A DNA stretch of 64,000 nucleotides, from the UHGV virus genome UHGV-0179803, one strand, 5' to 3'. The stretch is from a virus. Position numbers and translations under genes: made by a program. This document shows positions 56,013 through 57,584 of the stretch, piece after piece. The stretch's first letter is position 1, and the number at the start of each line of letters is the position of its first letter. The notes beneath the pieces are model-generated. The model saw only the letters and a list, made by a program, of their open reading frames with translations. It was not told where the DNA came from and ran no database searches.

Positions 56013-57584
56013 TTACCAGCCGATTGCAGCACCTGCACCCCAGACAACTTCTTCATTATTAGCAGCAACACTTGCTTTAACAGTTAAGTTGTCGTTGACA
56101 CGAGCACTTGCACCTACTGCGATAGCTTGCTGACCATCAAAACCACCAACACCAACACCTACACTGAAAGTTTGATGGCTGTTGACTTCAGGAATGTTAG
56201 CCATTGCAGCCACACCAGCGATACCCGCAGCAGCACGTTTGCGGTTAGCATCTACAGTGTTTTTCAGGTCACTGAAGTTTTTATTCAGTTTCTGAATTTC
56301 ATGGCTGTTACGGTTAATGGCCTGACGGTTAGCTTCGATGTTTTTACGGTTGTCGTAAATGCCAGCATATGCACCATCAATGCGTTCTTCGTTGCGTTGG
56401 ATGCGGATGCTGTTGTTAGCTACATCACGAGACACTACTTTCACATCGTTCTTAACATTGTTGACACCAGCTACTGCTTTATCTGCCGTGTTCTGTGCTT
56501 TATCAGCTTTAGCACTTGCAGTGTTTGCAGTATCCTGAGCATTCACCACAGCATTGTTTAGTGCGCCGTTTTGATTTTTCAGATCAGCAATGTCGTTTTT
56601 GTTTGTAGTGACTTGCTTGTTAGTATCTGCCAAATCTTCTTTCACAGCATCAATCTGGTTGCGATTTTCAATAGCTCCAGCTAATGCGCCATCTGCTTTG
56701 ATAGCCACATCTTCCAGAGCAGCTTTGTCAGCCTTATTTTCGTTCAGGTTGGTTAATTGTTCATCCTGTACAGCATTTTCACGTAGAGCTGTTTCTGCTG
56801 CGTTTAAAGCATTATTGGCTTTACTGTCAGTAACAGCAAGGTCAGTTTTATCTGCTTTTACCTGTTCTAACCGTCCAAGTTCTGCATCTTGTGCTACATT
56901 CTGGCTAAGAGCTTGATCTGCTTTTGCACCTGCATCAATGGCTAAATTTTTTGCCTGATCTGCATCTCGGATACCAGTTTCTGCTTTGCTGATGGCATCG
57001 TTAGCTTTTGCGTCAACAACTACTAAATCAGTTTTATCAGCCTTAGTGTTAACCAGTTGATCAACTTTAGCATTAGTTTTCTCAAGTTCTTCTTGCGTGT
57101 AGCTTACAGCCCCATGAAGAATTTGTTGTTCTACCTCGACCCTATTCAGGTGGTTACTGTTGTTGTTAATCTGATCCTGCATACCATCCATACGATCATT
57201 TTGTTTCTGTTGGTCTTTCAGGAAATCATTTTTGTCAACTTTATTGCCAACCCGATCTTTCAGTTCATCAACATCACGACCAATGTTGCTAACTTGCTGA
57301 TCTAGTCCGTTAATGTCAGCACTCAAATCGCCAATTTGTTGGTCATGCTTATTAAGGTGGTCATAGATACCAGAGGCATCAAAACTACTACCAGTCTGGA
57401 TTTGATCAATACGGTTATGCACATCAGAGAACTTGTCGTTCATATCGTGGCGCAGTTCATCCAACTGCCAGTTCTTTGTAGAAGCGTCAGGGTTCTCAGG
57501 ATTACCACTTGCAGCCAGGGCGGCACCAGAGAACAGAGCAGCGGCAATTGCAGTAGTGATGATAGCTTTATTCATATGTTTCAT
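56013..57584 (-). CDS. trimeric-autotransporter-like outer-membrane protein (YadA-type C-terminal anchor, coiled-coil stalk, signal peptide)
   Basis: N-terminal signal peptide MKHMNKAIITTAIAAALFSGAALAASG; long Q/N/D/K-rich coiled-coil; C-terminus RAAAGIAGVAAMANIP...SVGVGVGGFDGQQAIAVGASARVNDNLTVKASVAANNEEVVWGAGAAIGW with terminal Trp, matching YadA-like anchor domains; RBS GAGGTG. Confidence 0.75.
   Translation of the reverse strand: MKHMNKAIITTAIAAALFSGAALAASGNPENPDASTKNWQLDELRHDMNDKFSDVHNRIDQIQTGSSFDASGIYDHLNKHDQQIGDLSADINGLDQQVSNIGRDVDELKDRVGNKVDKNDFLKDQQKQNDRMDGMQDQINNNSNHLNRVEVEQQILHGAVSYTQEELEKTNAKVDQLVNTKADKTDLVVVDAKANDAISKAETGIRDADQAKNLAIDAGAKADQALSQNVAQDAELGRLEQVKADKTDLAVTDSKANNALNAAETALRENAVQDEQLTNLNENKADKAALEDVAIKADGALAGAIENRNQIDAVKEDLADTNKQVTTNKNDIADLKNQNGALNNAVVNAQDTANTASAKADKAQNTADKAVAGVNNVKNDVKVVSRDVANNSIRIQRNEERIDGAYAGIYDNRKNIEANRQAINRNSHEIQKLNKNFSDLKNTVDANRKRAAAGIAGVAAMANIPEVNSHQTFSVGVGVGGFDGQQAIAVGASARVNDNLTVKASVAANNEEVVWGAGAAIGW

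Follow-up and report, generated by a model that had tools for sequence, protein, structure and literature searches.

Introduction

Trimeric autotransporters (TAAs) are treated as bacterial virulence factors, and head and neck domains are typical of the family without defining it. The Eib genes of E. coli are prophage-borne TAA genes located near tail-fibre genes, and TAA genes have been on record from strictly lytic phages from phiEco32 and SP-058 onwards, without explanation. In a review from 2011, trimeric autotransporters were described as occurring exclusively in bacteria (PMC3417366). Moreno Switt et al. (2013; PMC3728262) reported yadA homologues in virulent phages, located away from the tail genes and of a significance that was not understood, and Chen et al. 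(2017; PMC5449768) described a yadA homologue of Serratia T4-like phages (CBH8), situated in a region that is dispensable and flanked by tRNAs. Why lytic phages build adhesin-type fibres on their hosts is a real and testable question that was raised before the locus described here, a TAA gene at positions 56013..57584 (minus strand) of a 64,000-nucleotide stretch of the virus genome UHGV-0179803, hereafter called the window.

The locus is an accurately identified gene of an already known type and represents an additional member of the class of virulent-phage genes for YadA-anchor proteins. It offers a clean case of this class, with a well-delimited cassette, purifying selection, a conserved tip that is specific to the family, and swappable anchors. 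The phage group to which the carrier belongs is used for therapy and biocontrol. If it is true that the fibre excludes other phages or alters aggregation, there would be consequences for cocktail design and phage ecology, and if the gene is transferable, it would bear on safety screens in which 'yadA' is flagged as a virulence gene.

The gene product and its membrane anchor

The initial annotation, which was made from the sequence of the window alone, had described a trimeric-autotransporter-like protein with a YadA-type anchor, and its coordinates for the gene proved exact. The open reading frame (ORF) is real and encodes 523 amino acids (MKHMNK...VVWGAGAAIGW) from an ATG at position 57584, the start that was also chosen in the public gene call of the same genome; in the list of ORFs the frame is given as 56013..57596 on the minus strand, beginning with GTG and encoding 527 amino acids. 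The protein ends in a YadA-type membrane anchor of four beta-strands with an aromatic C-terminus (...AIGW), located at residues 465-523 (56016..56192, minus strand). As had been proposed for the C-terminus, this segment matches the YadA_anchor profile of Pfam (PF03895) significantly, with an E-value of 4.7e-18 and 65.5 bits (gathering cut-off 22.7 bits) over model positions 1-60 of 60. When the protein was compared with all PDB sequences by phmmer, the only matches were the anchors of YadA (2LME, E 3.8e-7) and AtaA (9VNJ).

A single-chain AlphaFold2 model of residues 375-523, built on an alignment of 70 sequences, has a mean pLDDT of 85.4 and consists of one long helix (model positions 2-88) followed by four strands at residues 473-482, 485-495, 500-508 and 513-521 with a pLDDT of about 88. 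A Foldseek search of this protomer against the PDB returned five significant matches, all of them TAA anchors (Hia 2GR7, 3EMO and 2GR8, AtaA 9VNJ, YadA 2LME), with E-values from 2e-7 to 8e-6, target-normalised TM-scores of 0.70-0.85 and root-mean-square deviations of 1.6-2.4 A; the sixth match was already non-significant (E 0.09). The anchor fold that had been expected from the sequence was thus recovered at the level of the protomer. With YadA of Yersinia, Hia of Haemophilus and AtaA of Acinetobacter the protein shares an anchor that is alike in sequence and fold, a stalk that enters the barrel, and the aromatic C-terminus, whereas it differs from them in having no recognised head, neck or other passenger domain and in being encoded by a virus and not by a bacterium. 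The profile match, the signal peptide and the protomer fold all agree, and the gene almost certainly encodes a genuine type Vc (trimeric) autotransporter.

Signal peptide, stalk and tip

A Sec signal peptide occupies residues 1-24 (MKHMNKAIITTAIAAALFSGAALA, followed by ASGNP; 57513..57584, minus strand), as judged by rule from the hydrophobicity profile and the AxA motif. It is made up of an n-region MKHMNK with two lysines, an 18-residue hydrophobic core AIITTAIAAALFSGAALA and the cleavage motif A-L-A/A, so that the signal peptide described earlier is borne out by this rule, and it is kept in 23 of the 25 aligned members of the family. The whole protein contains no cysteine and is therefore not a lipoprotein.

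Between signal peptide and anchor lies a stalk rich in Asn, Asp, Lys and Gln, in agreement with the initial description. The composition of residues 25-440 is 13.2% Ala, 12.7% Asn, 12.3% Asp, 8.2% Lys and 7.5% Gln, and about 430 residues are modelled as all-helical with heptads carrying Asn at position d. Residues 67-464 (56193..57386, minus strand) were assigned to a putative headless alpha/beta coiled-coil stalk on the basis of the heptads and of a helical model of low confidence. In a crude, purpose-written register predictor, residues 42-112 and 133-150 conform to a heptad pattern, and a further heptad stretch extends without interruption from about residue 300 to residue 451 and leads into the anchor; core positions a are occupied by Ile or Val, and position d holds Asn more often than any other residue (9 of 32). 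Residues 150-300 are off the heptad register; within them a unit of about 60 residues occurs twice (177-206 versus 239-268, internal repeat score 91).

Four K[AV]DK motifs, which resemble the nonad of the Actinobacillus protein OMP100, are distributed along the stalk on the minus strand: KVDK at residues 115-118 (VGNKVDKND, 57231..57242), and KADK at residues 181-184 (VNTKADKTD, 57033..57044), 243-246 (EQVKADKTD, 56847..56858, inside the repeat 239-268) and 284-287 (NENKADKAA, 56724..56735). Layers with Asn at position d have been described for TAA stalks, and the OMP100 nonad IENKADKAD forms a beta-layer in such a stalk (PMC4786415). A full-length monomer model, used for the location of helix breaks only, is helical from residue 38 to 462 with breaks at 64-70, 116-117, 181-184 and 282-286, and in this low-confidence model the breaks coincide with three of the four motifs. 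Its pLDDT of 60.3 is low, as expected for an obligate oligomer. Beta-layers are accordingly only predicted at the four K[AV]DK sites. The stalks of OMP100 and of the phage protein thus have in common heptads with Asn at d that are interrupted by a K-A-D-K nonad; overall homology is lacking, and the beta-layers of the phage protein are predicted from the motif and from helix breaks in the low-confidence model. With about 425 helical residues at about 0.15 nm per residue, the fibre would be headless and roughly 60 nm long.

None of the TAA head, neck and stalk domains (YadA_head PF05658, stalk PF05662 etc.) was matched in the protein by Pfam even at E<=10, and among solved structures (PDB sequences) no relatives of the passenger were found, including the EibD fragments and other TAA passengers. 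Matches to Filament, SMC, Rad50 and the like in Pfam and NCBIfam lie far under the cut-offs and were discarded as coiled-coil noise; the PADLOC defence models LmuB and JetC were likewise spurious coiled-coil matches.

At its distal tip (residues 25-66, SGNPENPDASTKNWQLDELR...NRIDQIQ; 57387..57512, minus strand), the mature fibre is nearly invariant in the family. When residues 25-110 were used as query against 1.84 billion representative proteins, the convincing matches comprised the own family and fragments only. Other matches of the tip were repetitive coiled-coil proteins, one of which (P0109) is a spurious repeat protein.

Sequence variation and selection within the family

About 33 relatives can be aligned over stalk and anchor with 49-91% identity across the aligned part. 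Nearly all of them come from metagenome assemblies, several are located on contigs of 135-148 kb, which is the range of whole rV5-type genomes, and in the precomputed annotation PF03895 is assigned to all close homologues but one. In a family alignment of 25 members the total length varies from 380 to 565 amino acids, with cassette-like insertions and deletions in the middle of the stalk (about residues 150-300), and the membrane-proximal residues 377-426 are near-invariant.

Two alternative anchor alleles exist in the family and are swapped exactly after ...ANRQAIN. Comparison of the anchor region 56016-56267 of the window with the loci L002/L003, L006, L007 and L008 gave identities of 62% to GAP32, 56% to fHe-Yen8-01 and 55% to phiEco32, as against 43% to the other allele of the sibling phages. 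The anchor of the window is thus nearer to those of unrelated phages than to the sibling allele, and we therefore conclude that anchor modules are exchanged among unrelated phages.

Pairwise ratios of nonsynonymous to synonymous substitutions (dN/dS, Nei-Gojobori) are 0.22-0.36 for the whole gene and 0.05-0.11 within an anchor allele. The near-invariant segment carries synonymous differences (dS 0.16-0.38), and its conservation is therefore at the protein level. The gene is under purifying selection over its whole length, and this selection is strong on the anchor.

On a contig of 3.5 kb (L004, 1191-2737; protein P0032), the stalk is frameshifted and joined in frame at ...NIEANRQ/AQLAAQRA... 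to a secreted protein of the DUF5384 family (PF17358). In locus L002 (region 8001-12246), the DUF5384 protein involved is encoded some 2 kb further downstream. The fusion looks like a deletion that removed the anchor and six small genes, that is, a decaying copy or an assembly chimera. DUF5384 was considered as an alternative anchor and rejected, the junction being a deletion between two separately encoded genes with a frameshifted stalk. In three related phages the cassette is accompanied by a separate gene for the DUF5384 protein of 185-186 amino acids (L002, 11686-12246; L001, 8256-8813; L003, 6342-6899), which has a signal peptide followed by a helical body of high charge; a tblastn search for it in the window was negative.

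Related genes in other phages

YadA-type anchors were detected by tblastn in 61 phage records. Among the matches listed are a Kuravirus (phiEco32), Schitoviridae (SP-058/076), Ackermannviridae (SKML-39), jumbo phages (GAP32, Munch, fHe-Yen9-03/04), fHe-Yen8-01, and Erwinia phages including S6, and the labels differ from record to record, between agglutinating adhesin, adhesin, tail protein, tail fibre and receptor-binding protein. Phage homologues outside the family can be aligned to the TAA only over the last 110-175 residues. The three proteins that were checked, phiEco32 gp119, GAP32_424 and fHe-Yen8-01 gp092, all have a fibrous passenger between a Sec signal peptide and the anchor, and their signal peptides contradict the 'tail fibre' labels. 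In phiEco32, GAP32, fHe-Yen8-01 and SP-058 the anchor gene is located outside the annotated tail genes; in SP-058 it lies between the RNA-polymerase and dUTPase genes, and in GAP32 it directly follows a tRNA.

The window gene has in common with these virulent-phage genes the Sec signal, the fibrous passenger, a PF03895 anchor of 55-62% identity, and a location that is often beside tRNAs. It differs in its passenger, for which phiEco32 uses a collagen-like segment and the window gene some 430 residues of alpha/beta coiled coil whose tip is specific to the family, and in its carrier, an rV5-like myovirus. The fHe-Yen8-01 gp092 gene (L008, 1940-2914) encodes a clear signal peptide, yet its product is labelled 'receptor binding protein; phage particle associated protein'.

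Organization of the cassette

The TAA gene is preceded by a sigma-70-type promoter at 57634..57662 (minus strand), which consists of TTGACA, a 17-nt spacer and TATATT with an extended -10 TG and agrees with the consensus at 11 of 12 positions. In four loci with otherwise diverged flanks the -35 hexamer is invariant and the position of the -10 element is kept. By direct reading, a Shine-Dalgarno sequence GAGG is located 11 nt before the ATG (57596..57599, minus strand). The gene is followed, 16 nt past the stop codon, by a GC-rich intrinsic terminator hairpin (AGGCCACC-TTCG-GGTGGCCT, then TTCTTG; 55978..55997, minus strand), which is unchanged in the four loci.

Directly downstream of the terminator lies a small gene (55687..55953, minus strand) for an HNH/endonuclease-VII-like protein of 88 amino acids (MTEWDKF...), which matches PHROG 1035 'endonuclease VII' with an E-value of 5.8e-7; a Pfam match at E<=0.01 was not obtained. 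This gene always occupies the same place in both genomic contexts described below, with 91-96% identity across loci. It is a candidate free-standing homing endonuclease and could explain movement of the cassette. Upstream of the cassette, a tRNA cluster (Arg-CCT, Thr-TGT, Met-CAT; 58080..58323, minus strand) was found with ARAGORN; such a cluster precedes the gene in every case, being present just upstream in L001, L002 and L003 and also in GAP32.

The cassette, which is kept as a unit in about 30 uncultured relatives, was found at two genome positions, namely beside a convergent tail-fibre gene of about 1,930 amino acids (window, L002, L009) and within a ligase/NT5C block of DNA-metabolism genes (L001, L003). 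At the syntenic site of the cultured Vequintavirus AlexBoehm there are four small hypothetical genes only and no TAA gene. Because of these two positions and the absence from the AlexBoehm site, the TAA gene is to be regarded as an accessory cassette that is probably mobile and resembles a moron in its anatomy; the term refers here to anatomy alone (own promoter and terminator, gene missing from a relative), whereas moron genes in the classical definition are expressed from the prophage. The gene had been placed inside a virion-structural region; this has to be corrected, as it sits in a non-structural block on the minus strand that abuts the structural module.

The carrier phage

The carrier is an rV5-like, Vequintavirinae-related phage of gut-type bacteria, with 139.5 kb (139,523 bp) in the public ENA contig ERZ1034815 NODE_8 from which the window derives. 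Its head, terminase and tail genes have about 75% nucleotide identity to rV5-group Escherichia phages, the block upstream of the tRNAs has about 66%, and the tail-fibre proteins match rV5-type PHROGs. A megablast search with the 4-kb locus against 50,697 phage records gave no match. To our knowledge, the Vequintavirinae and the rV5 group comprise virulent phages only. Judged by this lineage and by the 64 kb of the 139.5-kb genome covered by the window, the carrier is presumably strictly virulent and would have no lysogeny genes.

Proposed role and alternative explanations

Starting from type Vc secretion biology, we infer the following course of export, trimerisation, surface display and timing. 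In the infected cell the gene would be transcribed from its own near-consensus sigma-70 promoter, and the product would be exported by the Sec pathway via its cleavable signal peptide. Three copies would insert through the beta-barrel assembly machinery (BAM) of the host and form a 12-strand barrel, and the headless alpha/beta coiled-coil fibre of about 60 nm would be threaded through the barrel to the cell surface by hairpin-mediated passenger export. There it would remodel the surface of the infected cell and of the debris, in line with the surface-remodelling cargo that the initial annotation had offered as an alternative. As the carrier belongs to a virulent lineage, the protein would have to exert its effect in the course of a lytic cycle, not in a prophage state, and we regard an action on the host surface at this stage as probable. 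Taken as a whole, a TAA cassette with this action is the explanation that we favour, with somewhat less assurance. In its leading version, the fibres would form a steric or receptor-masking layer by which rival phages are kept off the infected cell, or the own progeny off the debris. Such exclusion or shielding is proposed tentatively as the specific benefit, by analogy with Llp of T5 and Cor of T1/phi80, which are phage proteins sent to the host outer membrane, where they block adsorption. The analogy is one of function only, as Llp and Cor are small FhuA-binding lipoproteins, whereas the TAA of the window has neither lipobox nor Cys.

Several points weigh against this explanation. The 12-strand trimeric barrel is extrapolated from the model of a single protomer, and it is an assumption that BAM can assemble a sufficient number of fibres before lysis in a single cycle. 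The homologue from fHe-Yen8-01 is labelled 'phage particle associated', and the strong conservation of the distal tip would be more readily explained by a specific ligand than by a shield of purely steric action. In the searchable literature no functional study of any virulent-phage TAA was found, only remarks in genome annotations. Furthermore, the promoter was considered as a marker of early expression and rejected as such: equally good, near-consensus promoters also precede structural genes, and the TAA promoter is therefore no marker of timing.

A wider reading would extend this role to six or more unrelated lineages of virulent phages (rV5-like, Kuravirus, Schitoviridae, Ackermannviridae, jumbo Mimasvirus-type and fHe-Yen8-01-type), which would exchange TAA anchor and stalk modules and use them as an 'extended-phenotype' organelle of about 60 nm on the dying host, changing who touches that cell. 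This organelle could shut out rival phages, save progeny from being lost on debris or hold uninfected neighbours close by for the burst, and such genes would then form a general class devoted to surface remodelling in the lytic cycle. We consider this reading possible, with more doubt than confidence.

The most serious competitor is an aggregation or adhesion factor, in which the tip would attach to a ligand on host surfaces or in the environment, or fibre would attach to fibre, so that infected cells clump with their neighbours or adhere to mucus or particles and the burst is released near fresh hosts. TAAs such as YadA, Eib, SadA and UpaG typically cause autoagglutination and adhesion. The nearly invariant tip (residues 25-66) on a protein whose length varies from 380 to 565 amino acids is what would be expected of a ligand-binding end on a spacer, and the convincing matches of this tip are confined to the own family; as far as the conserved tip is concerned, a ligand-binding or aggregation role fits about as well as shielding. 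Against it, the protein has no head or known adhesive domain, and self-association would join only cells that are already infected. We hold aggregation or adhesion to be unlikely as the function.

A virion-associated fibre or receptor-binding protein is suggested by PHROG 17426 and 26246, which are filed under 'tail', by labels of homologues including 'phage particle associated protein' (fHe-Yen8-01 gp092), and by the position of the gene next to the tail-fibre cluster of the window. The cleavable Sec signal, present here and in the proteins of phiEco32, GAP32 and fHe-Yen8-01, argues otherwise, since a protein with a signal peptide leaves the cytoplasm, in which virion assembly takes place. 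The C-terminus is predicted to form a membrane barrel, the gene runs on the other strand than the tail genes, between a promoter and a terminator of its own, and it is found in a DNA-metabolism block in L001 and L003 and beside RNA polymerase and dUTPase genes in SP-058. Particle association in fHe-Yen8-01 could reflect co-purified outer-membrane fragments, or it could be real. A place in the virion is thus improbable.

The initial annotation had also raised the possibility of a cargo gene for lysogenic conversion or virulence, like the Eib immunoglobulin-binding proteins, which would confer serum resistance or adhesion from a prophage. In both cases a phage-borne TAA adjoins tail-fibre genes, the anatomy of the cassette is moron-like, and the nearest bacterial anchors are found in Enterobacteriaceae chromosomes. 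The suggestion did not hold up. Eib proteins, which combine a YadA-like head with an immunoglobulin-binding stalk, are encoded by temperate lambdoid prophages, whereas the TAA of the window belongs to a virulent lineage, is headless and shows no detectable similarity to them outside the anchor. Sequence similarity to solved passengers of Eib, EibD included, and of other TAAs is lacking, a head or immunoglobulin-binding region is not recognisable, and the close homologues sit on metagenomic contigs of phage size (135-148 kb). Since the backbone is rV5-like, of a group known only as virulent, and a search of 5,426 complete E. coli genomes gave no DNA match to the TAA locus, a role of this kind is very unlikely.

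Equally poor are the prospects of a selfish passenger that hitch-hikes with the HNH (homing) endonuclease and the tRNA island without benefit to the phage, an idea suggested by the HNH-like gene directly downstream in every case, by the two genome positions of the unit and by the deleted, frameshifted copy fused to DUF5384 on one contig, and contradicted by purifying selection over the whole length with its strong effect on the anchor, by the conservation of promoter, terminator and signal peptide, and by the independent recurrence of the architecture in unrelated virulent phage families.

Neighbouring features of the window

The further surroundings agree in most respects with what had been described at the outset: the tRNA cluster upstream, the small HNH-like gene and a membrane protein downstream, and the convergent tail-fibre gene are all present. 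The membrane protein gene (55314..55499, minus strand) encodes a single-pass protein of 61 amino acids and has its own sigma-70 promoter with 12 of 12 consensus positions (55558-55531). The convergent tail-fibre gene encodes 1939 amino acids and ends at 55086. Of three tiny hydrophobic ORFs said to lie upstream of the TAA gene, only one was confirmed between the tRNAs and the gene (57932-57774, 52 amino acids, absent from the public annotation); two further ORFs of this kind lie downstream (55499-55314 and 55305-55165). Another ORF, 58128-57937, overlaps the tRNA-Met gene.

Between the convergent tail-fibre gene and the accessory block on the minus strand, a perfect 7-bp GC hairpin (GGGGGCC...GGCCCCC, 55113-55131) has T-runs on both sides and is a putative bidirectional terminator. 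The window contains 16 near-consensus sigma-70 promoters (at least 11 of 12 positions), compared with 1.55 in shuffled sequences. Promoters with 12 of 12 positions and an extended -10 element precede structural genes (promoter examples: 22594, 24012, 55558 and 62151), which suggests that the phage relies on host-type promoters for its late genes too. Finally, two adjacent ORFs on the minus strand (59897-60691 and 60495-61088) both match PHROG 12232, which suggests a pair of tandem paralogues; as listed they overlap, and the start of the downstream ORF is therefore probably over-extended.

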